Shown piece after piece: positions 1,268-30,599 of a stretch of 64,000 bases of DNA. The notes beneath the pieces are model-generated. The model did no database searches. It saw only the letters and a program-made list of their open reading frames with translations, and was not told the DNA's origin. The translations under genes and the position numbers were made by a program. The DNA comes from Bacillota bacterium (GTDB lineage: Bacteria; Bacillota; Sulfobacillia; DUSP01; DYEP01), in contig JBFMAL010000008.1 of the NCBI GenBank assembly GCA_040755615.1, positions 4,693-68,692 of the forward strand, written 5' to 3'. Positions within the stretch are counted from its first letter, which is position 1. Each line of letters starts with the position of its first letter.

Positions 1268-1648
1268 ATGAACAGCGCTTTGGGCCGTCATGTGCTCGCA
1301 GAGGTTTACGGGTGCAAACCGCACGTACTGGACAATGTCGAGTCTGTCGAAAAGATCATGATAGACGCAGCGCTGGCAGCTGGGGCGGAAATAAGGGAAG
1401 TCGCATTTCACAAATTCAGCCCTCAGGGTGTAAGCGGAGTAGTGGTAATATCTGAATCCCATCTTGCGGTACACACATGGCCGGAGCTGGGGTACGCGGC
1501 AGTGGATGTTTTCACGTGCGGCGAGAAGGTAGACCCCTGGGTAGCATGCAATCACATCGTGAAGGAGTTTGACGCTACCAACGTGACGGCTTCGGAGATG
1601 AAGAGAGGCATCATGCAACCCCAGGCAAAGACTGCGCTGGCAGGATAA
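1268..1648 (+). CDS. speH: S-adenosylmethionine decarboxylase proenzyme, class 1B (pyruvoyl-dependent)
   Basis: 126 aa. Carries the diagnostic self-processing motif VVISESHLAVHTWPE (Ser to pyruvoyl) typical of bacterial and archaeal SpeH/SpeD. Confidence 0.9.
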   Translation: MNSALGRHVLAEVYGCKPHVLDNVESVEKIMIDAALAAGAEIREVAFHKFSPQGVSGVVVISESHLAVHTWPELGYAAVDVFTCGEKVDPWVACNHIVKEFDATNVTASEMKRGIMQPQAKTALAG

Positions 1649-1828: not shown

Positions 1829-2896
1829 GTGGACGAGTTGCTGAGTATGCTGAAGGAACTTACCGAGTGTTCGGGAGTCCCGGGACATGAGGCAGAGGTA
1901 CGCCAGGTGATCAGAAAACACGTGGCTCCGTACGCAGAGATTACCCAGGACAGGCTGGGCAGCATCATTTGCATGAAGAAGGGCGCGTCAGAAGAGCCCA
2001 GGATCATGCTCGCGGGGCACATGGACGAGATCGGTTTTATGGTCACCCACATCTCCAAAGAAGGCTACCTCAAATTCCAGCAGCTGGGCGGCTGGTGGGA
2101 CCAGGTGCTCATGTCCCAGCGGGTAGTCGTGAAGACCAAGAAAGGTGATGTGCTTGGGGTCATAGGGTCAAAACCGCCTCACCTGATGGACGCTGAAGAG
2201 CGGCGCAAGCTTGTAGAGAAGAAGGACATGTACATCGATGTGGGCGCATCCAGCAGGGAAGAGGCCCAGCAGTTTGGAATACGCCCGGGCGATCCCGTGA
2301 TACCGGCGAGCAACTTCAGCGTGATGACCAATCCAAAGTACCTGCTAGCGAAAGCATGGGATGACAGGGTTGGGTGCGCACTTTTCATCGAGGTGATAAA
2401 GAGACTTGGCCAGGATCATCCAAATACAGTGTATGGCGTGGGATCGGTCCAGGAGGAGGTGGGCCTTCGGGGGGCAGTGACCAGTTCTTTCGTGGTGCAG
2501 CCTCACGTCGGTTTTGCGCTTGAGGTCTCAATCGCCAACGACACTCCTGGAGTCGGCGAGCACGAGGGACAGGGCAAACTCGGGGGAGGTCCAGCGATCG
2601 TGGTATACGATGCCAGTCTGGTACCTAACGCGCGACTGAGGGACCTGGTGATTGACACGGCGCAGGAAGAGGGCATCAGCGTCCAGTTCGGCAGCCTGTC
2701 AGGCGGGGGAACCGACGCGGGCCGGATCCATCTTACCTCAGCGGGAGTACCGAGTCTCGTCATCGGAGTGCCCACAAGATACATTCACTCACACCAGGGG
2801 ATAATACACTTGGACGATTTCGAGAATACCGTGCGGCTGATGGTGGCTACAATAAATAAGCTTGATAGAAAGACCGTGGAATGGCTGGTGGAGTAG
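1829..2896 (+). CDS. M42 family metallopeptidase (glutamyl aminopeptidase / FrvX / YsdC-like)
   Basis: 355 aa. N-terminal LLxxLxxxxGVSGxE and HMDEIGFMV motifs plus overall M42 architecture. GTG start at 1829 preceded by AAAGGAG. Confidence 0.85.
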   Translation: MDELLSMLKELTECSGVPGHEAEVRQVIRKHVAPYAEITQDRLGSIICMKKGASEEPRIMLAGHMDEIGFMVTHISKEGYLKFQQLGGWWDQVLMSQRVVVKTKKGDVLGVIGSKPPHLMDAEERRKLVEKKDMYIDVGASSREEAQQFGIRPGDPVIPASNFSVMTNPKYLLAKAWDDRVGCALFIEVIKRLGQDHPNTVYGVGSVQEEVGLRGAVTSSFVVQPHVGFALEVSIANDTPGVGEHEGQGKLGGGPAIVVYDASLVPNARLRDLVIDTAQEEGISVQFGSLSGGGTDAGRIHLTSAGVPSLVIGVPTRYIHSHQGIIHLDDFENTVRLMVATINKLDRKTVEWLVE

Positions 2897-2900
2897 ATTG

Positions 2901-3347
2901 ATGGAGAAAAGCTTTGTAATGATAAAGCCCGACGGAGTACAGCGGGGACTGGTGGGGGAAATTATCGGCCGTCTTGAGCGCTGCGGCCTGAAACTGCACG
3001 CGCTCAGGCTCCTTCAAATCGACCGCCAGCTGGCCGCGGAGCACTACAGACAGCACGAAGGCAAGGCCTTTTACGAGCCGCTGCTTTCGTATATAACATC
3101 AGGCCCCGTTGTGGCGATGGTATGGGGCGGCCCTCGGGCGGTTGCGCTTGTCAGAAAGCTCACCGGAGCCACCGATCCACAAAAGGCGGAACCGGGTACT
3201 ATACGCGGGGACCTGGCGCTCGATATAGGCAAGAACATCATTCACGCATCAGATTCAGTGGAAGCCGCAGAGCGAGAGATCTCTCTGTTCTTCAACAAAG
3301 ACGAAGTGCTGGAACACGACAGAGCCGTTGACCCCTGGGTATACTGA
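2901..3347 (+). CDS. ndk: Nucleoside diphosphate kinase
   Basis: MEKSFVMIKPDGVQRGLVGEIIGRLE...NIIHASDS active-site region. ATG at 2901 preceded by GGTGGAG. The upstream in-frame extension from 2862 is an ORF-finder artefact. Confidence 0.9.
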   Translation: MEKSFVMIKPDGVQRGLVGEIIGRLERCGLKLHALRLLQIDRQLAAEHYRQHEGKAFYEPLLSYITSGPVVAMVWGGPRAVALVRKLTGATDPQKAEPGTIRGDLALDIGKNIIHASDSVEAAEREISLFFNKDEVLEHDRAVDPWVY

Positions 3348-3363
3348 CAGAGCGTTTGCCTCG

Positions 3364-3406
3364 GCAGGCGCCCGCTTGATGCCGGCGTCTGCTTCTCGTT
3401 TGTTTG
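3364..3406 (+). terminator. Probable intrinsic terminator after ndk
   Basis: 9-bp stem GCAGGCGCC (3364-3372) / GGCGTCTGC (3384-3392) with one G-U pair and an 11-nt loop, then a TTCTCGTTTGTTTG tract. Confidence 0.5.
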
Positions 3407-3469
3407 AAAGCATGCGCAGGGGCCGTAAAGTATCAACATGAAGTGCATGCGAAGGCAGGAGGACCAGGG

Positions 3470-4276
3470 ATGACAGTGCGTCTCCTCGGTGCTGCGATGG
3501 GACTGGCGGTGGCGCTGCTTGTGTACGCTGCTTTCATCGAGCCAAACTGGCTTCGGGTGGTCAGTTTAAACCTTCCTGTTCAAGGGCTCGGCCGTGCATT
3601 TGACGGGTTCCGGTTGGTGTTCCTGTCAGACCTTCACGGCCGGGCATCTGTGGCGGGAAGGCCCATCTCTGAGCTGGTTTCTTCGCTGCGGCCCGACCTC
3701 GTGGTAATCGGTGGAGACGTCGTTGCAAGACGCACCGGAGGAGTGGCACCCCGCTGGCTGTCGCTTCTTGCGTCGGAGGTACCAACGGTCGCGGTACCGG
3801 GAAACCATGACCATCGCCACGGGGATGCTCTAGCTGGTCTTTCCCGGACCGTCAGGGTACTGAAAAACACGTCCATGCGGCTTCAGAGGAACGGCTCCTC
3901 CCTCTGGCTGGTGGGGTGCGACGACGAAAAGTCGGGAATGGCAGACCCCGCCGCCGCTCTCGGCGGAACCGGCCGTCCGGTTATCCTCATTTCCCACTCA
4001 CCTGACGTGGTACTTCATCCGTCCGTGCAGGCCGTCAGCGCGGTGCTCGCGGGGCACACACACGGTGGCCAGGTATGCCTGCCGTTTTTCGGCCCGGTGT
4101 TGACCAACAGCGTGCTGCCAAGGCGTACCGCCCGGGGATGCAGCGTCGTGAGGGGGGTCAGGCTGGTTGTGACAGCAGGTATCGGTGCGAGTTATCTGCC
4201 CTTCAGGTTCTTGTGCCGGCCCGAGTTATGGCTTATCGTACTCCGGGCGGAGAGGAAAAGACCGGAGAGCCGGTGA
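3470..4276 (+). CDS. Calcineurin-like metallophosphoesterase (YkuE-like), with N-terminal TM/signal segment
   Basis: Motifs SDLHG, GGDVV, GNHDH and GHTHGGQV. ATG at 3470 follows a strong AGGAGG. The upstream extension from 3404 is unlikely. Confidence 0.8.
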   Translation: MTVRLLGAAMGLAVALLVYAAFIEPNWLRVVSLNLPVQGLGRAFDGFRLVFLSDLHGRASVAGRPISELVSSLRPDLVVIGGDVVARRTGGVAPRWLSLLASEVPTVAVPGNHDHRHGDALAGLSRTVRVLKNTSMRLQRNGSSLWLVGCDDEKSGMADPAAALGGTGRPVILISHSPDVVLHPSVQAVSAVLAGHTHGGQVCLPFFGPVLTNSVLPRRTARGCSVVRGVRLVVTAGIGASYLPFRFLCRPELWLIVLRAERKRPESR

Positions 4277-4326: not shown

Positions 4327-5115
4327 ATGATACTGGTAGGAACGGCAGGATTTTCCTATGCTGACTGGCGGGGGGTGTTCTACCCCGAGGCAATAAAGGC
4401 AGGGGATATGCTCGCGTTTTACTGCAGGTACTTTCCATGCCTTGAGATAGACTTCACCTATTACCAGCTGCCTGCGAGAAAGACTATAGAGGGACTCCTC
4501 AGAAAAGCACCTGACGACTTCTCCTTCATCATAAAGGCGAACAGGAAGATGACTCATGAGATAGGCGATCCCTCTTCGGTGGAAGAGGCGTTTGGGGCGT
4601 TCACGTACGCGATACAGCCGCTCCTTGAAGCAGGGAAGCTTGGAGGAGTGCTCTACCAATTCCCATTTGCCTTCCGTCCAACCCCTGCTAACGTCAGCTA
4701 CCTGAAGGGACTGCAGGAGCGTATGCCCGGGGCTGCTGTGATAGTGGAGTACAGGAATGCTTCCTGGTACGCACCCTGGGTGTTCTCCATGATGAAGGAG
4801 GCGCAGCTTGCATTCTGCGCGGTTGACGAGCCGGAGATCAAAGGTCTGATGCCCCGCGTCGTTCAGGCGACTGCAACTCCCGGCTATGTGCGGTTTCACG
4901 GACGGAACAAGGAGAAATGGTACAACCACAAGAACGTTTCCGAGCGCTACGACTATCTTTACTCACGCGAGGAGCTCATGGAGTGGGTCGGCAGGATCAG
5001 GGAGCTGGACCGCGAAGTTGGTCTGACTTACGTCATATTCAACAACTGCCACCACGGCTCGGCTCCGAGGAACGCGCTGGATATGCAGTTGCTTCTGGAG
5101 GCTGGCACATCCTGA
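4327..5115 (+). CDS. DUF72 (UPF0759 / YecE-like) protein
   Basis: MILVGTAGFSYADWRGVFYP...YYQLP N-terminus is typical of DUF72. ATG at 4327 after TGGAGG. The ORF extension back to 4075 overlaps the previous gene and is rejected. Confidence 0.8.
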   Translation: MILVGTAGFSYADWRGVFYPEAIKAGDMLAFYCRYFPCLEIDFTYYQLPARKTIEGLLRKAPDDFSFIIKANRKMTHEIGDPSSVEEAFGAFTYAIQPLLEAGKLGGVLYQFPFAFRPTPANVSYLKGLQERMPGAAVIVEYRNASWYAPWVFSMMKEAQLAFCAVDEPEIKGLMPRVVQATATPGYVRFHGRNKEKWYNHKNVSERYDYLYSREELMEWVGRIRELDREVGLTYVIFNNCHHGSAPRNALDMQLLLEAGTS

Positions 5116-5529
5116 AGAGATTGCTCTGATAGGTCTTTTACTCCCTGCAGCGGGGTGTAACACGGCACCCCGGCGCGCTGGAGGAAATGGTACCCGAGGC
5201 GCTCTCGCTTGGTTAGGTACCGATAGATTGATTTCAGTACGGACGAAGGAAGACACCCACAACGTGGTTGATACCTCGGCGTTCGCCCTCACGCTTTGCG
5301 GCGGGGAGGCGGCTGATAAGACCTGTGCGGAAGGGAACTGCCGTGGTGTCCACACGGCGCCTTCGACCTCGAACATGGTGAAGACCTTTACTCCCGGCTA
5401 CATGGCATGTATGATTGTGATGTGGAGGAGATACACTCCCGTCATCGTTCTTTCTGATCTGCGCGGGCTACTCTCTGCGCAAGCATCACAACTTATGTCT
5501 TTGAGGGAAAGGCGGAAAATCACGCGACG
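5116..5529 (+). promoter_or_regulatory. Unusually long (414 nt), GC-rich, structured non-coding leader upstream of the MFS-mtnP-ahcY-mtaD-HAD operon; candidate cis-regulatory RNA
   Basis: No credible ORF on either strand; the only frames overlap flanking genes. Several hairpins: CGGGGTG/CACCCCG at about 5149-5172, GCCGTG/CACGGC near 5335, and a long-range CCGAGGCG / CCTCGGCG pairing near 5195 and 5280. An UGGUACC core resembles a T-box. The family assignment is unresolved. Confidence 0.3.
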
Positions 5530-6816
5530 ATGTCCAATCGGATGGCAGGCAGCGAGCTCCCAGGCACGGTCGCCAGACGAAACTACTACCTCCTCATACT
5601 GGACGGCATTTTCTTCTACATCGGTCAGGCGTTCTGGGAACCGACCTCAGTGGTCCCGGCCTTTGTGGCGGCTGTCACGGGCTCGGAGCTGATGGTAGGT
5701 CTTGTGAGCACGGTGAGGTACGGCCTGTGGCTCGGACCACAATTGCTTGTCGCGCATTATGTTGAGAGACTCCCGTATAAAAAGGGCGTGGCGCTGGCCG
5801 CGGTGGCTGTGAACAGGCTAGCGATCCTTTTGATCGCGGTATCCACTTACGTACTCTGGCCCAACACGCAGCTTCTCACAGTTGTATTCTTCGCTCTTTA
5901 CATCATCGTCTGGCTTGGGGAAGGGATCACTTCTGTCCCTTGGACCGACATACTGGGCAGAGCGACCGACCCCCGCCGGCGCGGCGCGCTCATCGGTACC
6001 ATGCAGTGTATCGGCGGCCTCGGGGCGTTTGCTTCAGGGATGATCGTTGCGCGCATCCTGTCAAGCGACGCACTGGTGTTTCCGAACAACTATGCGCTAC
6101 TGTTTCTGATCGCTGCCATCATCACGAGCTTCTGTGCGGTTGCATTTTTCTTCGTGGTCGAGCCTCCGAGCAGGGCGTTGAAACGGCGGGAACCGATGAT
6201 GACGTACGTGCGGAGCGTACCCGGCCTCCTGACCGGAAACGCCCTGTACAGGGATGCGGTGATCACCCGAGTCATGGGAGCATCCATCTTTTTGTCCATG
6301 CCTTTTTATGCGGTGCACGCGAGAAACCTTGGCGTCTCAGCAGCGTACCTCGGTGCGTTCGTATCTGCGCAGATGCTAGGCAGCACTGTAGGGGGTCCCA
6401 TCCTGGGCAGAATAAGCGATACGAAAGGTAACAGACTGGTGATCCTTATTACGTTGAGCTGCACGATGCTCGCGCCCGTCCTTTGCCTGCTCGCGACCTT
6501 CATTGGCGGGCCCTTACGGGTGGTGCTGTTTCTGTTCGTCTTTGCCTGCCTCGGCATTTTCGGGTCAGGCTCCTGGATGGGTTTTGTGAACTACATCATT
6601 GACTGCACCCCTGAGGACCGGCGACCCACTTACCTTGGAGCGGTCAACACAATTATTGCGCCGACCACGTTGCTGCCCGTTGTGGGAGGCGTTATCGTAC
6701 GCCGGTTTGGCTATGTATCGCTGTTTGCTATAACCGCTGCGCTTTTGTTTGCCGCAGTCCTCTGGGGTAGAAGGCTCAAAGAACCAAGGCATATCGAAAG
6801 GGGGATCCCCATATGA
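5530..6816 (+). CDS. MFS transporter (12-TM major facilitator)
   Basis: 428 aa of alternating hydrophobic helices with an MFS-like DGIFFYIGQAFWEP loop. The stop overlaps the mtnP start (ATGA). Confidence 0.8.
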   Translation: MSNRMAGSELPGTVARRNYYLLILDGIFFYIGQAFWEPTSVVPAFVAAVTGSELMVGLVSTVRYGLWLGPQLLVAHYVERLPYKKGVALAAVAVNRLAILLIAVSTYVLWPNTQLLTVVFFALYIIVWLGEGITSVPWTDILGRATDPRRRGALIGTMQCIGGLGAFASGMIVARILSSDALVFPNNYALLFLIAAIITSFCAVAFFFVVEPPSRALKRREPMMTYVRSVPGLLTGNALYRDAVITRVMGASIFLSMPFYAVHARNLGVSAAYLGAFVSAQMLGSTVGGPILGRISDTKGNRLVILITLSCTMLAPVLCLLATFIGGPLRVVLFLFVFACLGIFGSGSWMGFVNYIIDCTPEDRRPTYLGAVNTIIAPTTLLPVVGGVIVRRFGYVSLFAITAALLFAAVLWGRRLKEPRHIERGIPI

Positions 6817-7613
6817 TCGCGATAATCGGCGGAACGGGTGTCTATGACGCCAGGCTGCTTGACGACGTCAGGGAGCGCGTGATCAAGACCCCGTTTGGCG
6901 AAACGCGCGTAAAGACAGGCGTGTACCACGGCAAGGAATGCGCGTTTCTCGCCCGACATGGCTATGCACACACAGTCCCACCGCACTTGGTCAACTACCG
7001 TGCGAATATCTGGGCGCTGGCAAGTCTTGATGTGGAAGCGGTGTTTGCCACTGCTGCGGTGGGTTCGCTCAACCTGGACATGCCTCCAGGCTGCTTCGTC
7101 GTGGTCGACCAGTTCATAGACATGACATCGGGCAGACCCTCCACCTTCTTCGAAGGGGGCGAAACGGGCGTAGTCCATACGGACTTCACCGAGCCGTACT
7201 GCCCCTCGCTACGCGCGCTCTTGGCACGGAGCCTCGACGAACTCGGCATTCGGTACCACGAGGGGGGGACCTACGTATGCACTAATGGTCCACGATTTGA
7301 AACACCTGCGGAAATACGCGCGTACCGTATCCTGGGAGCAGATCTTGTAGGCATGACAAACGTGCCTGAAGTAGTACTGGCGCGGGAAGCGGGGCTATGC
7401 TATGGGCTTGTCGCCATGGTCACAAACTATGCGGCAGGCATTTCAACGGAACCCCTCACTCATGAGGAAGTGCTCGATGTAATGAACGAAAACCAGTCAG
7501 CGCTCCAAAGGCTTCTCGCCGAGTGCGTGAAGCATTTCCCGTCTGAAAAGGGGTGCATCTGCAGGCTTTCGGGCGTACATTTCCGAAATATCTGGCTTTG
7601 CGAAAGGAAGTGA
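6813..7613 (+). CDS. mtnP: S-methyl-5'-thioadenosine (or 5'-methylthioinosine) phosphorylase, PNP/MTAP family
   Basis: MIAIIGGTGVY...HGYAHTVPPHLVNYRANIWAL...TNGPRFETPAEIRAYRILGADLVGMTNVPEVVLAREAG are hallmark MTAP motifs. Confidence 0.85.
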   Translation: MIAIIGGTGVYDARLLDDVRERVIKTPFGETRVKTGVYHGKECAFLARHGYAHTVPPHLVNYRANIWALASLDVEAVFATAAVGSLNLDMPPGCFVVVDQFIDMTSGRPSTFFEGGETGVVHTDFTEPYCPSLRALLARSLDELGIRYHEGGTYVCTNGPRFETPAEIRAYRILGADLVGMTNVPEVVLAREAGLCYGLVAMVTNYAAGISTEPLTHEEVLDVMNENQSALQRLLAECVKHFPSEKGCICRLSGVHFRNIWLCERK

Positions 7614-8872
7614 AAGCGGTGAGCAGGATCAGAGAGGGAGTGGACCCCACCGCGGGGCTGATGAAGCTCGGATGGGCGAAGGCGCACATGCCGGTGCTGT
7701 CCATCCTCGGAGAAGAATTCGCCCGAGAGAAAGTGCTGGACGGGCTGACCGTAGGCATATGCCTCCACCTTGAAGCGAAGACCGCGTGCCTCGCGCTGGC
7801 GCTCCGGGACGCGGGCGCACAGGTGGGTATATGCGGCAGCAACCCACTGTCAACCCAGGATGACGTGGCTGCGGCCCTGGCTGCAAGCGGCGTTGAGGTG
7901 TTCGCGTGGCATAACCCTGACAGGGCCCAGTACCAGGCGTTCATTCACGATGTGCTTAATTTAGCGCCGGATATCGTCGTGGACGACGGGGGGGATCTGG
8001 TGAGCACCATCCACAGAGAGAGGCGTGAGCTTATAGGAAAGGTGATTGGCGGTTGCGAGGAGACCACCACCGGCCTTCGGCGCCTCCGGGCCATGGAAAA
8101 GCGGGGCGAGCTTGCATTTCCCATGGTCGCGGTGAATGACGCAAACACCAAGTTCCTGTTTGACAATAGATACGGCACCGGGCAATCCGTATGGGACGGC
8201 ATTATGCGCACCACAAACCTTGTGGTGGCGGGAAAAACTGTGGTGGTCGCAGGCTATGGTTGGTGCGGAAAGGGCGTGGCCAACAGGGCACGAGGTCTCG
8301 GGGCGCGTGTGATCATCACCGAGGTTGACCCTGTGAAAGCTGCCGAAGCTTACATGGAGGGTTTTCTCCCCATGCATTCTCTTGAGGCAGCGGAGGTGGG
8401 TGATATCTTCATCACCGTCACGGGCTGCGCGAACGTGTTCTCAGAACCACATTTCTCCCGGATGAAGAACGGTGCCCTGCTTGCCAACGCCGGGCATTTC
8501 AACGTGGAGATCGACCTTTCGTCCCTAGACCGCATTGCCGAGGCCCGGTGCCGGGTCAGGCCTAACGTCGACGAGTACACCCTGCCCGACGGCAGGCGGC
8601 TCTACGTGCTCGCCGAGGGGCGGCTGGTCAATCTTGCCTCAGGAGATGGCCACCCGGTAGAGATCATGGACCTGAGTTTTGCAGTTCAGATGTTGTCTGT
8701 CGCTTACCTGGCAACGGAAGGAAGGTACATGGCGCCGCGGGTGCTGCCTGTTCCCGAGTGGGTGGACCAACGCGTGGCTTCGGCTTTTCTGAAGGCGCGT
8801 TCGATCCGGATAGATACGCTAACCACGGAGCAGAAACAGTACTATGACAGTGCGGGAGGCGAGGATGAATGA
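7610..8872 (+). CDS. ahcY: Adenosylhomocysteinase-family hydrolase (SAH hydrolase, or possibly S-inosylhomocysteine hydrolase)
   Basis: 420 aa. ...ETTTGLRRL..., NDANTKFLFDNRYGTGQS, and NAD-binding VVVAGYGWCGKGVANRARGLGARVIITEVDP. GTG start at 7610 after AAGGAAG; it overlaps the mtnP stop. Confidence 0.9.
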   Translation: MKAVSRIREGVDPTAGLMKLGWAKAHMPVLSILGEEFAREKVLDGLTVGICLHLEAKTACLALALRDAGAQVGICGSNPLSTQDDVAAALAASGVEVFAWHNPDRAQYQAFIHDVLNLAPDIVVDDGGDLVSTIHRERRELIGKVIGGCEETTTGLRRLRAMEKRGELAFPMVAVNDANTKFLFDNRYGTGQSVWDGIMRTTNLVVAGKTVVVAGYGWCGKGVANRARGLGARVIITEVDPVKAAEAYMEGFLPMHSLEAAEVGDIFITVTGCANVFSEPHFSRMKNGALLANAGHFNVEIDLSSLDRIAEARCRVRPNVDEYTLPDGRRLYVLAEGRLVNLASGDGHPVEIMDLSFAVQMLSVAYLATEGRYMAPRVLPVPEWVDQRVASAFLKARSIRIDTLTTEQKQYYDSAGGEDE

Positions 8873-10149
8873 AAACAGCCATTACGGGGGGCACGCTCAT
8901 CACGCAGGACCCCCGCACCGGGGTTGTAGACGGGGGCACGGTGATCATCGAAGACGGCACTATTACCGAGGTGTTGCCAGAAGGCTCTGTATTTTCGGCC
9001 GACGTGACAATTGACGCAAGCGGATGCGCGGTGATACCCGGGTTTATAAACGCGCATACCCACGCCGCCATGACTCTTTTCCGGGGCTACGCCGACGATC
9101 TGCCGCTTTTTGCCTGGCTCCGCGAACGGATCTGGCCTGTGGAGGCGCGCCTTAGTGCCGAGCATGTTTACCACGGCACGCGGCTTGCCATAGCGGAAAT
9201 GCTACTTTCGGGGATCACCTGCTTTGCTGATATGTATTTTGAAATGGACGCCGTAGCGCAGGCTGTGCGCGAGTCGGGCATCAGAGCGGTGCTGGCGAGG
9301 GGCATGATCGCGGACAGCGCGAGCAGTTCCATGGCTGAGGCTATAGAGTTATTCCTGAAGTATCATGGCAAACACCGCATCCAGGTAATGCTGGGTCCGC
9401 ACGCGCCCTACACCTGTCCTCCGGACTTTTTGGTTGAGGTGGCAAAGGAGGCTTTGAGTCTTGGTGCCCGTGTACATATTCACCTCGCTGAGACTGCGGC
9501 GGAAGTAGAGGAGATGAAGGAGAAGTATGGGCGGCGGCCGGCAGAGATCCTGGTAGACTCGGGCCTCACGCAAGCTGGACTTCTGTGTGCACACTGCGTC
9601 CACGTGGACAAGGAGGAAATCCGGGTGCTGGCGGAGGCGGGGGCGGGCATCGCGCTTTGCCCTGTGAGCAACGCCAAACTGGCAGCAGGATTTCCCCCGG
9701 TGACCGCCTGGCTGGGCTCCGGCACCGGGGTGGGCCTTGGTACCGATGGGGCCGGTTCAGCAGGCAGGCTTGACCTTTTTGACGCTATGCGGGCTGCATC
9801 CTTCGGCGAAAAGCTAGCGTCAATGGACCCGCGAAGGGCCAGTGCGGCAGAATTGTTGACTGCGGCCACCTCTGGGGGCGCGAGGGCGCTCGGTATCGAC
9901 CACATCGCGGGCTCCATCACCACAGGAAAGATCGCGGACTTGGTGGTAGTGGACCTTGATACCCCATGGACCCAGCCCGTACATGACCCGGTGTCCACGC
10001 TGGTGTATGCAGCGACGGCAGAAAACGTAAGGCACGTGTTCGTGGAGGGTCAGCAGCTTGTGAAAGACAGGGCGCTCACCTACGCAGACGTAGAGGACAT
10101 CTTGGAAAGTGCAAAAAGTGCGGCCTGTTCGCTGTTTTACAGTAGGTGA
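8869..10149 (+). CDS. mtaD: 5-methylthioadenosine / S-adenosylhomocysteine deaminase (amidohydrolase superfamily)
   Basis: GFINAHTHAAMTLFRGYADDLPLFAWL with an HxH metal site, ...HLAE..., ...GLGTDGAGS.... It is ATGA-coupled to ahcY. Confidence 0.85.
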   Translation: MKTAITGGTLITQDPRTGVVDGGTVIIEDGTITEVLPEGSVFSADVTIDASGCAVIPGFINAHTHAAMTLFRGYADDLPLFAWLRERIWPVEARLSAEHVYHGTRLAIAEMLLSGITCFADMYFEMDAVAQAVRESGIRAVLARGMIADSASSSMAEAIELFLKYHGKHRIQVMLGPHAPYTCPPDFLVEVAKEALSLGARVHIHLAETAAEVEEMKEKYGRRPAEILVDSGLTQAGLLCAHCVHVDKEEIRVLAEAGAGIALCPVSNAKLAAGFPPVTAWLGSGTGVGLGTDGAGSAGRLDLFDAMRAASFGEKLASMDPRRASAAELLTAATSGGARALGIDHIAGSITTGKIADLVVVDLDTPWTQPVHDPVSTLVYAATAENVRHVFVEGQQLVKDRALTYADVEDILESAKSAACSLFYSR

Positions 10150-10154
10150 CCCTT

Positions 10155-10820
10155 ATGTTCGACCCGGTGATCTTTGACATGGACGGTACGCTGGTGGACT
10201 CGTTCGAAGCTATTCTGTTGGCATTCAATCATGCCATGGAAAAGATGGGACGACCCAAAGTCACGCACGACGAACTGCTGCCCGTGATCGGGGTTGCGCT
10301 GAAGGACATCTTCAGGCTTTACCTGCCCGAAGAGCGCGTAGGCGAGGCTGTGGATCATTACAGAACATACCAGGCCGGCATCATCCTGCAGCGCACACGC
10401 GTCCTGGATGGTGTGTTGCTGACTCTTCAGGAGCTCTTCAAGATGGGCGTGACCATGGGCGTAGTGACGAATAAGCCGGTTGATGTTGCACTGAGAGTAC
10501 TGGACCACGTGAAGCTCGGGAGGTTCTTTGGAGCTGTGGTAGGCGTGGATGAGGTGAGCCGACCCAAGCCAGACCCCGAAGGGCTGTACCTTTGTCTGAG
10601 CCGTCTCGGCAAGACTGCAGCGCAATGCCTTTACGTGGGCGACTCCCACATCGACATGGACACGGCGCTGGCCGCGGGCGTGGAATTCCGGCTCGTACCC
10701 ACAGGAGCCGTGGGTGCAGACGATCTCAGGCGCCGCGCTAAGCAGCGGGTGATTTCGGGGCTCCCCGAGCTCTTAGAGTGTTACTGCCGCAACGATAACG
10801 ACTGCAGCGACCAGCGCTAA
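10155..10820 (+). CDS. HAD-IA family hydrolase (phosphoglycolate phosphatase-like)
   Basis: MFDPVIFDMDGTLVDS (DxDGT motif I) and VVTNK (motif II). A GTG at 10146 is an alternative start. The 3' end overlaps the convergent DUF401 gene by about 48 nt. Confidence 0.8.
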   Translation: MFDPVIFDMDGTLVDSFEAILLAFNHAMEKMGRPKVTHDELLPVIGVALKDIFRLYLPEERVGEAVDHYRTYQAGIILQRTRVLDGVLLTLQELFKMGVTMGVVTNKPVDVALRVLDHVKLGRFFGAVVGVDEVSRPKPDPEGLYLCLSRLGKTAAQCLYVGDSHIDMDTALAAGVEFRLVPTGAVGADDLRRRAKQRVISGLPELLECYCRNDNDCSDQR

Positions 10821-11969
10821 CAACGAGGGAAGGTATTTCAGGAACACCTTCCACGGGCGTACACCGAAATACTGGCAAGTGAGCAGCTGGCATAAGTGGA
10901 TCGGAGATGTCATGTAAGATATGAAGGACGCCGAGTACGCGAGCATAGCGTAGGTCGCTGGTGCACTCTTGGCGAACGGAATGAGGATGGGAAAGGAGAC
11001 TGCCACGGTAACGGAAACGGAGCCGGTGATGAACCCCAGAAGCAGCGGTATGAGGAAAAACAAAAGAGACTTGCTGACTCCAGAGTCGATCAGCGCGCCG
11101 ATCAGGGAACCGACCGCTTGTGCCTCCTGTACCATGCCCCTGAAGATCATGATGGCCAGCATCGAAAGTGATGTCCACCAGTCAACGAAACCGAGCGCGC
11201 TGCGGGTCGAGACCTGTTTACGCGCCTGGATAAGCGCCACAGCTGCTCCCATGCCTAGGCTCAGGGGCAAGGTGGTAGACAGCGCACCGAAAGTAGCAAG
11301 CGCTACCAGGATGGGCGCTGCGCTGGACACAAAGGAGCGCGCAGCGTCCCTGAAGGGCGCAAAGCGCTCACTGTCCGGGTTCTTGCTGCCGCCAAGGAGA
11401 GTAAAATACGCGGTGATAATTGCCGCCAGCGCCGCGGGCATATTCATCAGTACGAGCCTGTAGAGGTCCAACTCCCAGAGCCGGGAGGCAAGAATCAGCC
11501 CCGGCATAAACGGAAACACCAAAAAACAGGCGTGCCTGAAGACCAGGTTCGCGGCGGATTTGGTCTCCGGGTCAAGACTCATCTTGTCTCCGAGCGCATC
11601 TACCATGGGAGCCGAGAGCGCAGCGCCCCCGAGCACGGGCATGGTACCGATAAGCGCAGGCGTAAGCATGATGGCCGCCCTATTGCTCCTCACCATGTCC
11701 CGGAGGGAGTTGACCATTGAATCAAGCCGGCCAGTTTTCTTCATACAGTTCCCGATTAAACTAATGAACACAACAGACAAAGCCAGCTCCCATGTGGTGT
11801 AGGAGGTGAAAGCGCTGCTTGTGACATTGAGCAACCTCGCTGCACTATAGCGGGATGCAAGAGCGATGATAGAAGCGCCCGCGAGCATTGCAGAGCCCAT
11901 GTGTACCTTCCTAGTGACAAGTACGATGATGACGACAAATGCAAAAGCCACGCCCAGCGCTTCAGTCAT
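10773..11969 (-). CDS. DUF401-like polytopic membrane protein
   Basis: About 399 aa starting MTEALGVAFAFVVIIVLV, after a GGAGAAGAGGTG RBS (reverse complement of 11972-11990). The longer ORF to 12497 overlaps the divergent phosphatase gene and is rejected. Confidence 0.7.
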   Translation of the reverse strand: MTEALGVAFAFVVIIVLVTRKVHMGSAMLAGASIIALASRYSAARLLNVTSSAFTSYTTWELALSVVFISLIGNCMKKTGRLDSMVNSLRDMVRSNRAAIMLTPALIGTMPVLGGAALSAPMVDALGDKMSLDPETKSAANLVFRHACFLVFPFMPGLILASRLWELDLYRLVLMNMPAALAAIITAYFTLLGGSKNPDSERFAPFRDAARSFVSSAAPILVALATFGALSTTLPLSLGMGAAVALIQARKQVSTRSALGFVDWWTSLSMLAIMIFRGMVQEAQAVGSLIGALIDSGVSKSLLFFLIPLLLGFITGSVSVTVAVSFPILIPFAKSAPATYAMLAYSASFISYMTSPIHLCQLLTCQYFGVRPWKVFLKYLPSLLALVAAVVIVAAVTL

Positions 11970-13158: not shown

Positions 13159-15912
13159 TTGCAAAGGCTTAACCGATTTGTTGCTTTGGACGTGGAGACG
13201 ACCGGGCTGTCGCCGGAGGGTGATCAGATCATCCAGGTTGGAGCAGTGCGCTTCGAACACGGGGAGAGCGTGGACGAGATGGTACTCCTTGTGAACCCCG
13301 GCGGCGGACTGTCTCAGGCGGTCGTCACCCTGACCGGCATCACCCGAAAGATGCTTGAGGGCGCGCCGAGCGCTGCACGCGCCAAAGCCGCGCTCCGCGA
13401 ATTCATCGGCGCCGACCCGATTGTGGCTCATAACGTTGACTTTCACATCGGTTTCCTAGTGCGGGTCGACCCGTGGTTTGCTGGGGTGACTGCGGTAGAT
13501 ATGATTGACTTCGCCCGAGTGGCCATACCGGACCTGGCGAGCTATAGCCTTCAGTCCATTTCTGGCACGCTGGGTATAAGTCAGCCCCGCTCCCACGACG
13601 CTCTCGAGCACGCACGGGCGTGCGGCCTGGCATTTCTTCGTCTTGTCGATGTACTCCTGACGTGTGAAGCCGGGATGCTTCAGGGTGCGGGACATCTGCT
13701 TGAGTCAGGCGGATTGGCTGCAGGAAGGCTGCTAGTTGAGCTCGCGCAGGAGGCCAGGGGGCGTCCGCAGCCTGACCGTGAGGCGAACCCCGAACCGTTA
13801 AAGCCCCTGGATAACCCCGCGGAAGTGGACCCGAAAGAGTGTATGGCGCTGCTTCAGGCAGGCGGTCCGCTAGCAGCCGAGATTCCATGTTTTGAGGTGC
13901 GCCCGGGACAACTAGCTATGGCGCGGCTCATCTGCCAGGCCTTCAGGGAACAGCGCCACCTCATGGTGGAGGCGGGTACCGGTACCGGGAAGTCCCTGGC
14001 GTACCTGGTACCCAGCGTACTTCACGCTGTGGCCACAGGAGAGAGAGTGGTGATCGCCACTCACACGCTGAACCTTCAGGAGCAGCTATTCAATAAGGAC
14101 ATCCCGCTGCTCAGTCAAGTCACGGCGAAGGAGTTCCGGGTGGCGTGCATTAAGGGAAGAAACAACTACCTTTGCCGGAGGAAGTGGGCAAGCGCTGTGA
14201 CGGAAGCTGCACTCGTGCGCGACAAGGACCGGGCAAGGCTGCTTGCATGGCTGTTCTCCTGGGGGTCGCGCACAAAGACCGGCGAGCGGCAGGAGATAAA
14301 CCTCCCCGCGTCGGCTGACGACCTCTGGCAGGAGCTGGCCTCTGATACCTCCAGCTGCGCGGGCGCCAGGTGCCTGGCCAGGAAATCATGTTTTGTGGGC
14401 GCTGCCCGAGCTCAGGCCGCAGCTTCCCATCTCGTGATCACCAATCATTCGCTGCTCTTCTCTGACTTCAAAACGGACAACCAGGTGCTCCCGAGATACA
14501 GCAGGCTGGTGGTGGATGAAGCCCACCACCTCGAGGAGGCTGCGACCAGGCACCTCGGTACGGAACTGGACTTTTATCATATCGCCAGTACACTGTCGGC
14601 CGACGGCTATTTGCTCTCGCTAAAGGGGCGAATATCAGGAAGCCGCGCGTTTTCCTCGAAAGTGAAGGCAGCCCTGCTGGAGGCGATAGACAGCAGCCAG
14701 AAAGCCGCCCGGTCTGCTGTGACGGCGCTTACTGACCTCGGCTCAGCGCTTGTCAGCATCTGTTTCGGCGACCGGCAGGAGGACGTACGTACCCGGAGGA
14801 TCTTGCCTGACACCTTCGCAAAGATGCCAAAAGACGCAGATGTGGCGCTGGAGAACACAGGTTACTGGCTTAATAAACTCTTTCAAGAAATGGAGGAAGG
14901 CGCGCTCGCGATCGAAGACACCGACGACACGGATGCCGGATGTATACAGGCGGAAATGACAAACTTGGCCCAAGAGCTCTCAGAGTGGTGCCGACTCCTG
15001 CCCGAGCTGATCACCGCCCAAGACCCTGCCAGCGTGTACTGGGCTGACTGGTACCCTGCACGGGGCGCTCTTGGCATACACCTGCACGCCGCCCCGGTCG
15101 AAGTAGGCCCGCTGTTGCGCCAGCTTTTATTCGACAACTTGAAGACCGTGATCCTAACATCTGCGACCCTCAGCGTGGAAGGACGGTTTTCCTACGCCGC
15201 CTCAAGGCTTGGTCTTGAGGATTGTGAACGCTTTGATTTTCACCAGGTGCCAAGCAACTTCTCTTACAAGGAACAGGCGCTTCTTCTGGTCGTCGATGAT
15301 CTGCCAGACCCTAACTTGACGAGGGAGTTCTCTGACGCTGTGGCGGCTTTCTTGCTGAACCTCGGCAGGGCCCTAAAAGGAAGGACCCTGGTGCTGTTCA
15401 CCTCGCACCGGATGCTGAAGGACGTGGCGCAAAAGATTCGCCTCGACTATACCGGGCTTGGCATAGAACTGCTTGCGCAGGGAGTAGACGGGGCGCGCCG
15501 CCATCTCACCGAGCAGTTCAGGGCCAACTCCTGCTCGATCCTGTTCGGGTCCGCCTCATTCTGGGAAGGAGTGGACCTGCCAGGCGAGGAACTGGTATGT
15601 GTTGTGCTGGTTCGTCTGCCTTTCTGGCCGCCTGATGTACCGGTGGTACAGGCGAGGATGGAAGCCATCGCGGGGCGCGGAGGCGACCCTTTCCGGGAGT
15701 ACTCGCTCCCTGAGGCGGTCATCCGGTTCAAGCAGGGATTCGGGCGCCTCATCCGTACCGCCTCGGACAGAGGTGCAGTGGTCGTACTTGACCCCAGGAT
15801 GACGAGGGCGAGGTACAGCCGCGTGTTTGTCTCCTCCCTCCCTGGGCCGATGTGCGTTCGGGTGTCTGCCCGGCAGAGCATTCCCACGCTTCTTGAGTGG
15901 CTAAGGAGTTGA
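13159..15912 (+). CDS. dinG: DinG-family ATP-dependent DNA helicase with N-terminal DnaQ-like 3'-5' exonuclease domain
   Basis: N-terminal exonuclease motif FVALDVETTGL.... Helicase motifs AGTGTGKSLAYL and ...VVDEAHHLEEAA... (DEAH), and a C-terminal helicase domain. TTG start at 13159 after AAAGGTGG. Confidence 0.9.
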   Translation: MQRLNRFVALDVETTGLSPEGDQIIQVGAVRFEHGESVDEMVLLVNPGGGLSQAVVTLTGITRKMLEGAPSAARAKAALREFIGADPIVAHNVDFHIGFLVRVDPWFAGVTAVDMIDFARVAIPDLASYSLQSISGTLGISQPRSHDALEHARACGLAFLRLVDVLLTCEAGMLQGAGHLLESGGLAAGRLLVELAQEARGRPQPDREANPEPLKPLDNPAEVDPKECMALLQAGGPLAAEIPCFEVRPGQLAMARLICQAFREQRHLMVEAGTGTGKSLAYLVPSVLHAVATGERVVIATHTLNLQEQLFNKDIPLLSQVTAKEFRVACIKGRNNYLCRRKWASAVTEAALVRDKDRARLLAWLFSWGSRTKTGERQEINLPASADDLWQELASDTSSCAGARCLARKSCFVGAARAQAAASHLVITNHSLLFSDFKTDNQVLPRYSRLVVDEAHHLEEAATRHLGTELDFYHIASTLSADGYLLSLKGRISGSRAFSSKVKAALLEAIDSSQKAARSAVTALTDLGSALVSICFGDRQEDVRTRRILPDTFAKMPKDADVALENTGYWLNKLFQEMEEGALAIEDTDDTDAGCIQAEMTNLAQELSEWCRLLPELITAQDPASVYWADWYPARGALGIHLHAAPVEVGPLLRQLLFDNLKTVILTSATLSVEGRFSYAASRLGLEDCERFDFHQVPSNFSYKEQALLLVVDDLPDPNLTREFSDAVAAFLLNLGRALKGRTLVLFTSHRMLKDVAQKIRLDYTGLGIELLAQGVDGARRHLTEQFRANSCSILFGSASFWEGVDLPGEELVCVVLVRLPFWPPDVPVVQARMEAIAGRGGDPFREYSLPEAVIRFKQGFGRLIRTASDRGAVVVLDPRMTRARYSRVFVSSLPGPMCVRVSARQSIPTLLEWLRS

Positions 15913-15918
15913 CGAAAA

Positions 15919-16701
15919 ATGATGGTGCTTTTGACGAATGACGACGGCTATCAGGCGGATGGTCTGAGGGCGCTTACAGAGGCCTTTACCGCGGCAGAAG
16001 ACTTCTCTCCGTACGTGGTGGCGCCTGACAGGGAGCGCAGCGCCACGAGCCACGCTATCACCATGCACAAGCCCCTCATAGTAAATGAACACTGCAAGGA
16101 GGGCTGCGCTACCTGGGTGGTTTCGGGCACGCCGGCCGACTGCGTCAAGCTGGCCGTGGAAGCGCTGCTGCCTGAAAAACCCGCCCTCGTCATATCTGGC
16201 ATCAACCGGGGCGCCAACCTCGGAAACGATATCCTTTACTCAGGGACGGTTTCCGCGGCCATTGAAGGTACGCTGCTTTCCATACCCTCCGTCGCCATAT
16301 CGCTCTGTTCGCGCGACGCTGGGGATTTCAGTGTGGCGGCTGCATTCGGAGTAAGGCTTGCCAGGCTGGTCGTGGCCAACGGGCTGCCGCCATCCACGCT
16401 CCTGAATGTGAATGTGCCGGGTATCCCGGCAGACCGGATAAAGGGTGTGAGGGTCACTTTTCTGGGCACGCGCAGGTACCAGAACGTGTTCGACCGTAGG
16501 GTTGACCCAAGGGGAAGAGTGTACTACTGGATGGCGGGAGACGCGTGCGATGAAGAAGAGAGCGAGGACACAGACGTAACAGCAACGCTGTGCGGGTATA
16601 TATCCTTAACACCCGTGAAGATCGATCTCACTGCGCGCGATTTCATGGAAGAACTAAGACACTGGAATCTGAATCCGAATGAAGGGGTAAAAGATGGCTA
16701 A
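15919..16701 (+). CDS. surE: 5'/3'-nucleotidase SurE
   Basis: MMVLLTNDDGYQADGLRAL...SGINRGANLGNDILYSGTV are the canonical SurE motifs. Confidence 0.9.
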   Translation: MMVLLTNDDGYQADGLRALTEAFTAAEDFSPYVVAPDRERSATSHAITMHKPLIVNEHCKEGCATWVVSGTPADCVKLAVEALLPEKPALVISGINRGANLGNDILYSGTVSAAIEGTLLSIPSVAISLCSRDAGDFSVAAAFGVRLARLVVANGLPPSTLLNVNVPGIPADRIKGVRVTFLGTRRYQNVFDRRVDPRGRVYYWMAGDACDEEESEDTDVTATLCGYISLTPVKIDLTARDFMEELRHWNLNPNEGVKDG

Positions 16702-24332: not shown

Positions 24333-24758
24333 GTGAAGACGTTGAGACTTTCAAAAAGGGACGAACTCTGTTCGGGCTGCAGGAGCTGCATCTTGGTCTG
24401 CTCAATGGAGAACTTCCTGAAGGCAGACCCCACGCTCGCTGCACTCCGGATAAAGGGGCATTTTCCCGTTCCCGGGAAATATGAGGTGGTGCTTTGCGAC
24501 CAATGCGGGGAGTGCGAAAAAGCCTGCCCCACCGGAGCCATTTATGCCGACGGCGAAGCGTATCGCGTCAAGCCCGAAGAGTGCATTGCGTGCATGGCGT
24601 GCATCGAGGCCTGCCCGAAAGGCGCCATCTGGTTTAACCAGGCGCTGGGCGCTCCGGTAAAATGCGTGCTGTGCGGCGAGTGCGTGCGCTATTGCCCGCG
24701 ACAGGCCATCGTGGACGAGACCGGAGAAGTCAAGTGGGGAGGTGAACAGGCATGCTAG
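24333..24758 (+). CDS. Polyferredoxin (three to four 4Fe-4S clusters), partner of the downstream AOR
   Basis: CSGCRSCILVC, CDQCGECEKACP, CIACMACIEACP and CVLCGECVRYCP. Start is GTG at 24333 or TTG at 24342 (after GGAGGTG). Confidence 0.8.
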   Translation: MKTLRLSKRDELCSGCRSCILVCSMENFLKADPTLAALRIKGHFPVPGKYEVVLCDQCGECEKACPTGAIYADGEAYRVKPEECIACMACIEACPKGAIWFNQALGAPVKCVLCGECVRYCPRQAIVDETGEVKWGGEQAC

Positions 24759-30433: not shown

Positions 30434-30599
30434 GTTTACGGCCAAGGTATTCTCTGGCCGCATGACTTTGTCGAAATAGGATACGCACCGCGCCGCTAAC
30501 CCTGCTTGATTAGCGGTACGGAGGGGGTGGGACAGTACACGGACATCTAGGTGACAGCGTCTCTTTTCCGGTTTGGAAAAACTCAATGGAGGTGGTCCA

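Follow-up and report, generated by a model that had tools for sequence, protein, structure and literature searches.

We have analyzed a tightly packed cluster of five genes on the + strand of a 64-kb window (the whole stretch of DNA considered here) from a member of the Bacillota, and we believe, with a probability of about 0.7, that this operon codes for a deaminase-first route of disposal or salvage of the adenosyl by-products of S-adenosylmethionine. An MtaD-like amidohydrolase would hydrolytically deaminate the SAH left by methyltransferases, the MTA formed in polyamine synthesis and the 5'-deoxyadenosine of radical-SAM enzymes, giving S-inosylhomocysteine (SIH), 5'-methylthioinosine (MTI) and 5'-deoxyinosine. 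The NAD-dependent AhcY would convert SIH to homocysteine and inosine, recognizing hypoxanthine at N1-H by Glu55 and at O6 by Lys57. An MTAP-family phosphorylase, reading the 6-oxopurine through Glu163 and Asn205, would then release hypoxanthine by phosphorolysis, leaving ribose-1-P from inosine, methylthioribose-1-P from MTI and 5-deoxyribose-1-P from 5'-deoxyinosine. In most relatives a co-operonic MtnA and class II aldolase would take these sugar phosphates into the DHAP shunt; in the genome studied here the genes for these two steps are not nearby, neither mtnA nor a class II aldolase being found within the 64-kb window. The substrate preferences of all the enzymes, and the flux through the route, are what we infer.

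The gene content and order, like the residue states and the operon conservation described below, are direct observations. All five open reading frames were present on the + strand at the coordinates claimed in a preliminary description of this DNA: an MFS transporter (5530-6816, 428 aa, Pfam MFS_1), an MTAP-family nucleoside phosphorylase (6813-7613, 266 aa, PNP_UDP_1), AhcY (AdoHcyase and AdoHcyase_NAD; 7610-8872 with a GTG start and 420 aa, or 7661-8872 with ATG and 403 aa), a zinc amidohydrolase of the MtaD/DadD/Tm0936 type (8869-10149, 426 aa, Amidohydro_1) and a HAD-IA phosphatase (10146 or 10155 to 10820, 221-224 aa, HAD_2). This gene order is far above chance expectation. Translational coupling by ATGA had also been claimed, and genuine ATGA overlaps are found at the MFS/phosphorylase (6813-6816) and AhcY/MtaD (8869-8872) junctions, but the phosphorylase and AhcY genes overlap by GTGA, and only if AhcY starts at GTG 7610 as in the Logan call; the NCBI call, ATG 7661, leaves a gap of 47 nt. 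At the MtaD/HAD junction the start at 10146 gives a GTGA overlap and ATG 10155, which is the start (221 aa) in both NCBI and Logan calls, a gap of 5 nt.

The deaminase-first reading, put forward in the same description, is supported by the purine-recognition residues of AhcY and of the phosphorylase, both of which fall on the 6-oxo (hypoxanthine) side. Residues 53-57 of AhcY are HLEAK (His53-Leu-Glu55-Ala-Lys57 in the 420-aa numbering), a HxExK fingerprint that aligned without gaps with HLEMK of PfuSAHH and HLEAK of both TmSAHH and MmaSIHH. Koeppl et al. (2024; PMC10978960) linked HxExK experimentally to a preference for SIH and HxTxE(Q) to a preference for SAH, and PfuSAHH, TmSAHH and MmaSIHH were all experimentally SIH-preferring (PMC10978960). 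These three, from Pyrococcus, Thermotoga and Methanococcus, are also the nearest solved relatives of the window AhcY (481, 479 and 461 bits, respectively), the match to mammalian SAHH being of about 305 bits; on NF004005 the score was 622 bits. We predict from these comparisons an archaeal-type short form, a hydrolase with preference for SIH. HxExK enzymes retain SAH turnover (PMC10978960), so that the earlier wording "MTI- and SIH-specific" goes too far in its last word, although the residues of both enzymes do favour the hypoxanthine forms. Besides, mouse and Pseudomonas SAHHs of the HxTxE(Q) type show some SIH turnover, and hence further specificity residues must contribute beyond the fingerprint (Koeppl et al., PMC10978960).

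The phosphorylase scored 301 bits on TIGR01694 (MTAP) and 267.5 on NF006599 (MTI phosphorylase, cut-off of 223 bits), thus exceeding both curated cut-offs; its passing of the MTAP model, and not of the MTI one alone, is a point against our reading. Its pocket has Glu163, Asn205 and Ala207 where all solved MTAPs have Ser178, Asp220 and Asp222 (human MTAP numbering). The segment around Glu163 matched true PNPs more closely than MTAPs and aligned ungapped on bovine PNP 190-224, with Glu163 at PNP Glu201; Asn205 coincides with PNP Asn243. The Glu/Asn/Ala states were common to 80/80 related loci, and Thermococcus homologues, which are among the closest relatives, have the same Glu/Asn pocket. PaMTIP, at 186 bits, was more distant than the archaeal MTAPs (243 bits). 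Some NCBI records of the relatives carry the name "S-methyl-5'-thioinosine phosphorylase". The predicted product is an MTAP-family enzyme of trimeric-PNP fold whose PNP-like pocket would accept inosine, MTI and 5'-deoxyinosine, indicating a 6-oxopurine and making no discrimination of the 5' substituent.

The enzyme could instead be a strict inosine/guanosine PNP, which would count against the deaminase-first reading in its full form: only the SAH branch would operate, the phosphorylase clearing SIH-derived inosine, with neither MTI nor 5'-deoxyinosine as a substrate. Pyrococcus furiosus PfPNP is reportedly such a strict PNP in an MTAP scaffold. Glu163, Asn205 and His217 (the latter at the position of PNP His257, the 5'-OH ligand) fit this idea, as do the UniRef name of the clade, "Probable 6-oxopurine nucleoside phosphorylase", and a window operon without mtnA or an aldolase for MTR-1-P or 5-deoxyribose-1-P. 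However, His217 does not discriminate, because it is also found in a canonical TDYD copy at one related locus (L020), and 48/80 loci have mtnA immediately downstream of a phosphorylase of this clade with identical residues. Furthermore, 13 loci with enough flank have the arrangement mtnP-mtnA(-aldolase)-mtaD and no ahcY, so that SIH-derived inosine cannot be the purpose of the phosphorylase there; these operons tie the clade to the production of MTR-1-P or 5-deoxyribose-1-P from deaminated nucleosides. The homologue of Methanocaldococcus jannaschii is reported to act on MTI, 5'-deoxyinosine and other purine nucleosides (summarized in PMC6302742). Altogether we consider a route limited to SAH unlikely.

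Under the deaminase-first reading the amidohydrolase (E 9e-73 on Amidohydro_1) is predicted to act on SAH, MTA and 5'-deoxyadenosine. It stayed below the cut-off of every NCBIfam equivalog model, so we infer this substrate range from its neighbours. The best solved relatives, with E values from 1e-89 to 1e-66, include the Chromobacterium MTA/SAH deaminase 4F0R, Tm0936 of Thermotoga (1P1M, E 2e-66) and 4GBD of P. aeruginosa (E 6e-83), an entry titled only "Putative uncharacterized protein" that we take to be the structure of PA3170. The catalytic residues are intact, and His63, His65, Trp83, Glu92, His178, His205 and Glu208 were invariant in 56 operon-linked homologues.

Operon conservation was examined in the 80 best matches to the window phosphorylase, which form one clade and are not an independent test of association; 58 of them had enough flank for neighbour counts. 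Among these 58, mtaD was found in 48 and ahcY in 38, and HLEAK was present in 43 of the 45 neighbouring AhcY proteins of the whole set. Most loci also contain mtnA and many the class II aldolase, as in mtnP-mtnA-ahcY-aldolase-mtaD (15 loci) and mtnP-mtnA-ahcY-mtaD (10 loci). The repetition of the order phosphorylase-ahcY-mtaD in dozens of genomes suggests a deaminase-first operon hard-wired in many anaerobic Firmicutes. HLEAK-type AhcY was found across Clostridia and Negativicutes, including the mesophilic Sporomusa, Propionispira and Pelotomaculum. Since current reviews confine HxExK enzymes to Thermotoga and Euryarchaeota, it is this wide occurrence in Bacillota that makes the result useful. 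The arrangement had been called rarely documented in Firmicutes; it is actually common in Bacillota genomes, although our literature search found no paper describing it there and no assay for any enzyme of the Bacillota clade.

The same comparison bears on the canonical annotation, by which an ordinary MTA phosphorylase and SAH hydrolase would work on adenine compounds and the amidohydrolase would be parallel or unrelated (for example, an adenosine, aminofutalosine or 8-oxoguanine deaminase). NCBI does name the two proteins S-methyl-5'-thioadenosine phosphorylase and adenosylhomocysteinase, both above the corresponding NCBIfam cut-offs, and the SAH activity kept by HxExK enzymes and the deaminase scores below equivalog cut-offs would agree with it. 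Yet neither of the two aspartates by which MTAP reads adenine is kept, and at N1 and N7/O6 the phosphorylase has the ligands of 6-oxopurine PNPs. AhcY carries the motif that experiments have associated with SIH preference, and phosphorylase, ahcY and mtaD are co-inherited in a single order across dozens of genomes. The only locus with the adenine-type versions, a second phosphorylase copy in L020 with canonical FST/TDYD adjoining an SAH-type AhcY (HVTTE), has no deaminase nearby. The canonical roles thus appear quite improbable.

The two outer genes behaved differently. The MFS protein (E 6e-29 on MFS_1) had only 23 homologues, with no salvage genes in the three neighbourhoods inspected (P0126, P0122 and P0132), and was absent from all 80 related loci. 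The HAD protein, a HAD-IA phosphatase of the Gph/PpaX-like group (E 3.5e-41 on HAD_2), scored about 125 bits on each of PpaX and PGP_bact, under their cut-offs; among solved structures it came nearest to uncharacterised HADs and to phosphoglycolate phosphatases, and a homologue was nearby in 1/80 loci (L004). Transporter and phosphatase had been taken as support for the salvage route, a role they lose by being missing from the related operons; they are lineage-specific additions without comparative support. If they are counted as co-transcribed with the enzymes, one might think of a purine nucleoside uptake and salvage operon, with an MFS importer, an adenosine deaminase, a PNP, a HAD nucleotidase and AhcY as passenger, and genes for a nucleoside diphosphate kinase and a SurE nucleotidase are found in the neighbourhood. 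This is very unlikely: beyond the absence of MFS and HAD genes from all related operons but one, the MFS homologues elsewhere lie in unrelated contexts, the conserved partners are AhcY and the DHAP-shunt genes, and the closest solved relatives of the deaminase are MTA/SAH deaminases.

Deaminase-first routes are already known from methanogens and Thermotoga, and the Bacillota operon would be a further bacterial case. The DadD-SIHH-MTIP route of M. jannaschii uses the same three enzyme families and the same deaminate-then-cleave logic; it comprises a 5'-deoxyadenosine/SAH/MTA deaminase, an S-inosyl-L-homocysteine hydrolase (EC 3.13.1.9) and a promiscuous methylthioinosine phosphorylase. The archaeal SIHH shares the HxExK fingerprint with the window AhcY, but here the host is bacterial and the three genes are in one translationally coupled operon. 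Besides, the products of the Bacillota relatives would feed the isomerase and aldolase of the DHAP shunt, whereas 6-deoxy-5-ketofructose-1-P synthesis is proposed in the archaeon (PMC6079011). Thermotoga maritima, the only bacterium with a documented SIH route (PMC10978960) and regarded in reviews as an archaeal-type exception, has counterparts of the deaminase (Tm0936, MTA/SAH deaminase) and of AhcY (TM0172, SIH-preferring SAHH). The HLEAK motif of TmSAHH is identical to ours, but in Clostridia and Negativicutes the enzyme type is widespread and shares an operon with an MTAP-family phosphorylase. To our knowledge, the Pseudomonas deaminase and PaMTIP genes are not clustered with ahcY. NF006599, passed by the window phosphorylase, was built for PaMTIP (PA3004, PDB 3OZB), which in P. 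aeruginosa acts after MTA deamination by PA3170 (PMC6302742); the Pseudomonas SAHH prefers SAH (PMC10978960), unlike the prediction for the window AhcY. Finally, the DHAP shunt or 5-deoxyribose salvage clusters (phosphorylase or kinase, MtnA-like isomerase and class II aldolase; Beaudoin et al., 2018, PMC6079011) contain the trio seen in most of the operon relatives, the window lacking isomerase and aldolase. In the papers on this shunt 5'-deoxyadenosine or MTA is taken to undergo phosphorolysis directly, with co-operonic deaminase and AhcY unmentioned.

Upstream of the MFS gene there is a non-coding leader of 414 nt (5116..5529, + strand). No riboswitch or other RNA family matched it in Rfam at gathering score, and positions 5050-5600 gave nothing even at E<=5. 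The fold z-score of the leader was -0.78, and it contains one promoter-like site (5387-5415), a count not above that of shuffled sequences. About 4 kb upstream of the operon lies a gene for SAM decarboxylase, a source of MTA. An identical contig is also public under GCA_049320785.1, as "MAG: Bacillota bacterium".

On the forward strand between 5530 and 10820, five genes encode, by Pfam and NCBIfam family, an MFS transporter (5530-6816), an MTAP-family phosphorylase (mtnP, 6813-7613), an AhcY homologue (from GTG 7610 or ATG 7661 to 8872), an MtaD-like amidohydrolase (8869-10149) and a HAD-IA phosphatase (from GTG 10146 or ATG 10155 to 10820). The junction sequences contain unambiguous ATGA overlaps between MFS and phosphorylase and between AhcY and deaminase. 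The phosphorylase/AhcY and deaminase/HAD junctions are GTGA overlaps, and only with the GTG starts. For the identical contig (GCA_049320785.1), public gene calls differ in the start of AhcY (403 aa vs 420 aa), and both begin HAD 5 nt past the deaminase stop. Translational coupling through ATGA, as proposed in the preliminary description for the three enzymes, was found at the AhcY/deaminase junction, but between phosphorylase and AhcY the overlap is GTGA and exists only if GTG 7610 is the start. Whichever starts apply, the spacing of the five genes is that of a single operon. We considered a SAM or SAH riboswitch in the leader of 414 nt and rejected it, as Rfam gave nothing there, either at gathering score or at E<=5, and the fold was not unusual. 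Promoter and terminator scans returned sites no more numerous than in shuffles.

The phosphorylase scored 301 bits against TIGR01694 (MTAP, cut-off 275) and 267.5 bits against NF006599 (MTI phosphorylase, cut-off 223); because the MTAP model was passed too, the second match alone does not discriminate. We have therefore relied on residues for the purine assignment, reading them from PNP and MTAP alignments together with the NCBIfam score; PaMTIP (3OZB) is not among the five alignments shown. The MTAP alignment is in register at Thr8/Thr18, Arg48-His49/Arg60-His61 and Phe162/Phe177, and the phosphate and ribose residues are kept (Thr8, Arg48, His49, Met181 and Thr182, equivalent to human MTAP Thr18, Arg60, His61, Met196 and Thr197). 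Adenine is read in human MTAP by Ser178, Asp220 and Asp222. Ser178 and the TDYD motif that holds both aspartates are present in all five solved MTAPs displayed. In the alignment to these proteins, the adenine-reading set of canonical MTAP (EC 2.4.2.28) is absent from the window phosphorylase, which has Glu163, Asn205 and Ala207 at the three positions. A segment of 36 residues around Glu163 matched trimeric PNPs (E 1e-10 to 1e-8) better than MTAPs (1e-7 to 3e-4). It lies ungapped on bovine PNP 190-224, placing Phe162/Glu163 on Phe200/Glu201 and Met181 on Met219, and Asn205 aligns to PNP residue 243. In trimeric PNPs, 6-oxopurines are classically bound by Glu201 and Asn243. With Glu163 and Asn205 at these positions, the pocket is PNP-like within an MTAP scaffold, as is reportedly the case in the MTI phosphorylase of P. 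aeruginosa. The earlier suspicion that this MTAP homologue might not be adenine-specific is thus borne out at the level of its purine-contacting residues. Close relatives are already named 'Probable 6-oxopurine nucleoside phosphorylase' in UniRef and, in a few NCBI records, 'S-methyl-5'-thioinosine phosphorylase'. The pocket would read a 6-oxopurine; it does not tell the 5' group (hydroxyl, methylthio or hydrogen). His217, which coincides with PNP His257, was tried as a discriminator of this group and dropped because it is also present in a canonical TDYD copy found in one related locus (L020, described below).

A similar situation was found in the AhcY homologue. The protein has the AdoHcyase fold with its NAD-binding domain (PF05221 and PF00670) and reached 622 bits against NF004005 (cut-off 275). 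Its best solved relatives are PfuSAHH (481 bits), TmSAHH (479) and MmaSIHH (461), with mammalian SAHH at about 305. The architecture is of the archaeal type, defined by the lack of a 40-residue insertion and a short C-terminus: at 403-420 aa, it aligns almost end to end with the Tm and Pfu enzymes (404-421 aa) and has no large insertion. Residues 53-57 are HLEAK, ungapped on HLEMK of Pfu and HLEAK of both Tm and Mma, the nucleobase fingerprint HxExK replacing HxTxE(Q). Koeppl et al. (2024) assayed 18 SAHHs and found that enzymes with HxExK preferred SIH and those with HxTxE(Q) preferred SAH (PMC10978960). The SIH-preferring HxExK enzymes were those of M. jannaschii, M. infernus, M. maripaludis, P. 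furiosus, T. kodakarensis and T. maritima, and in crystal structures the Glu of the motif contacts N1 of hypoxanthine and the Lys contacts O6 (PMC10978960). A predicted SAH deaminase is also encoded in the same genome, by the MtaD-like gene that overlaps the AhcY stop codon. Residues specifying the 6-amino group were not found in AhcY; what we see is the opposite, and the enzyme is predicted to be a SIH-preferring hydrolase, in line with what had been proposed.

The best solved relatives of the deaminase (E 1e-89 to 1e-66) include the Chromobacterium MTA/SAH deaminase 4F0R, Tm0936 and 4GBD, which we take to be P. aeruginosa PA3170; 8-oxoguanine deaminase and atrazine chlorohydrolase score below them. 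The metal and catalytic set is intact (His63/His65, His178, His205/Glu208 and Asp293 of the GTDG motif), and all of these except Asp293, which was outside the tabulation, are invariant in 56 operon-linked homologues. Trp83, Glu92 and Arg144 correspond, by a constant offset, to Trp75, Glu84 and Arg136 of Tm0936. No NCBIfam equivalog cut-off was reached, the best scores being 429 vs 609, 423 vs 540 and, for the 5'-deoxyadenosine deaminase model, 333 vs 522. Membership of the MtaD/DadD/Tm0936 group therefore rests on solved relatives and context, and it is the context that suggests a substrate range of SAH, MTA and 5'-deoxyadenosine.

With the substrate preferences that we infer for the three enzymes, the operon would work as a deaminase-first route. 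The deaminase would convert SAH, MTA and 5'-deoxyadenosine to SIH, MTI and 5'-deoxyinosine; SIH would be split into homocysteine and inosine by the AhcY homologue; and inosine, MTI and 5'-deoxyinosine would be cleaved by the phosphorylase to hypoxanthine and the sugar-1-phosphates. Such an order may be advantageous, since irreversible deamination would pull the unfavourable hydrolysis of SAH forward and three by-products would be funnelled into one purine product.

With each species represented by one genome, a scan yielded 80 loci whose phosphorylases are the closest relatives of that in the window. They form one clade because they were picked by similarity to the window phosphorylase, and the counts are not an unbiased test of association. 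The loci come from Clostridia (Moorella, Desulfotomaculum and allies, Pelotomaculum, Desulforudis, Ammonifex, Thermincola, Syntrophomonas, Dethiobacter and Thermaerobacter), Negativicutes (Sporomusa, Propionispira and Selenomonadaceae), Dictyoglomota and Thermococcus. Glu-Thr/Ser together with TN[FYMWL][AG] was present in the phosphorylases of all 80. Gene order was counted in those 58 loci that extend 5.5 kb or more downstream, where mtaD was found in 48 and ahcY in 38. The arrangement mtnP-mtnA-ahcY-aldolase-mtaD appeared in 15 of the 58, mtnP-mtnA-ahcY-mtaD in 10, mtnP-mtnA(-aldolase)-mtaD with no ahcY in 13, and mtnP-ahcY-mtaD, the core found in the window, in 5. Among the AhcY genes neighbouring the phosphorylase in all 80 loci, 43 of 45 had HLEAK, and for 39 of these 43 mtaD lay within the fetched stretch. 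One of the two exceptions (L072) is a distant HMTIQ protein with 34% identity. The other belongs to the Bacillota MAG locus L020 (8001-13951), where both phosphorylase types are found in one cluster: a TNYA/Glu phosphorylase accompanied by mtnA and aldolase, then an AhcY with the SAH-type HVTTE, then a second phosphorylase with canonical FST/TDYD, and no deaminase within 8 kb. This locus is an informative natural contrast between the two enzyme types. In Moorella (L005 and L009) and in L006 the phosphorylase adjoins a HLEAK AhcY with mtnA upstream, and no mtaD was found within 8 kb, so that the Moorella deaminase is either encoded elsewhere or absent in the genus. In a relative of the three-gene type (L069), a 429-aa ORF (6624-7913) stands immediately upstream of the phosphorylase, its N-terminus resembling by eye a homocysteine-binding S-methyltransferase domain. 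If the resemblance holds, it would link homocysteine released by AhcY to its remethylation.

Over the 80 loci, mtnA was present in 48 and class II aldolase in 28. Beaudoin et al. (2018) described this pair for the DHAP shunt, or 5-deoxyribose salvage, and noted clusters of phosphorylase, isomerase and aldolase, with no mention of the deaminase and AhcY (PMC6079011). The operons with mtaD and mtnA but lacking ahcY are an argument that phosphorylases of this clade produce MTR-1-P or 5-deoxyribose-1-P out of deaminated nucleosides, and that their role is not only the clearance of inosine. Action on MTI and 5'-deoxyinosine beyond inosine is suggested indirectly, through the tie of the clade to mtnA. 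In the 64-kb window itself, tblastn with MtnA and aldolase of the relatives as queries gave no match, paralogues included, and the Pfam annotation of 40 other ORFs contained no mtnN, luxS, metK or hpt.

The deaminase-first route is known from M. jannaschii and T. maritima, and its MTA branch from P. aeruginosa (PMC10978960, PMC6302742), and the operon is not surprising in principle. Recent structural work (PMC10978960) and a review have limited HxExK hydrolases to T. maritima and some Euryarchaeota, interpreting them as an adaptation of extremophiles. This distribution is corrected here, since the HxExK type is found across Clostridia and Negativicutes in a conserved operon with the deaminase and a 6-oxopurine-type MTAP homologue, usually also with DHAP-shunt genes. 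The arrangement had been described as rarely documented in Firmicutes. In a full-text literature search we came across no relevant paper that names both mtaD and ahcY, which agrees with that description, but in the genomes the operon is widespread among anaerobic Bacillota; the demonstration of this spread, and of the link to the DHAP shunt, is what the comparison adds. If the predicted preferences are true, deamination first would be the default disposal of SAH, MTA and 5'-deoxyadenosine in many anaerobic Firmicutes, acetogens, sulfate reducers and syntrophs included. Thousands of database names such as 'MTA phosphorylase' and 'adenosylhomocysteinase' would need correcting, and a deaminase step would have to be added to the DHAP-shunt literature. 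Cultured carriers (Moorella, Desulfofundulus and Sporomusa) make these predictions directly testable.

The two outer genes of the operon had also been counted in favour of the salvage route, a use of them that the comparison does not bear out. The MFS family is small, and we rejected it as comparative evidence for a conserved pathway component: our search returned only 23 homologues, and the three whose surroundings were inspected lie in unrelated contexts. HAD was likewise rejected: of the 80 loci, a single one has it close to the operon, and its solved relatives are generic. Window (2862-4276 and 13159-16701), L010 (6952-14471) and L068 (6732-15932) have in common a backbone of ndk, a metallophosphoesterase, mtnP-ahcY-mtaD, an exonuclease/DinG-like helicase (917 aa) and surE. 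Since L010 and L068 are distant relatives, DUF72 and MFS on one side, and HAD, DUF401 and a histidine phosphatase on the other, look like insertions into this backbone. Another reading would be that HAD and an MFS exporter took the place of DHAP-shunt genes that the ancestral operon contained, MTR-1-P and 5-deoxyribose-1-P being dephosphorylated and exported instead of recycled, in a self-contained detoxification operon. There is precedent for the excretion of 5-deoxyribose and MTR (PMC6079011). The one observation on its side is the tight coupling of HAD and MFS in the window, and we consider this replacement quite improbable. Within the apparent insertions, HAD (+) and the convergent gene for the DUF401 membrane protein (-) share 48 nt at their 3' ends (10773-10820), and a 10-bp hairpin (10828-10852) is located directly past the HAD stop, within the DUF401 coding region.

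Further away, public gene calls place an AdoMet_dc gene (S-adenosylmethionine decarboxylase, 126 aa) at about 1268-1648 (+), some 4 kb upstream of the operon; the product of this enzyme is a substrate of polyamine synthesis, of which MTA is a by-product. Downstream (24752-26584, 29645-31958 and 32316-34043) are an aldehyde:ferredoxin oxidoreductase, a DDAH/arginine-deiminase-like gene, a 'nucleoside recognition' Gate-domain membrane protein and a PucR-type purine-catabolism regulator, which may be linked to the handling of aldehydes or purines. Finally, a RACo-type reductive activator of corrinoid proteins at 62099-63928 (+) hints at corrinoid-dependent methyl transfer of the acetogen or methylotroph kind in the host; if so, the host would produce or consume methyl groups in large amounts.
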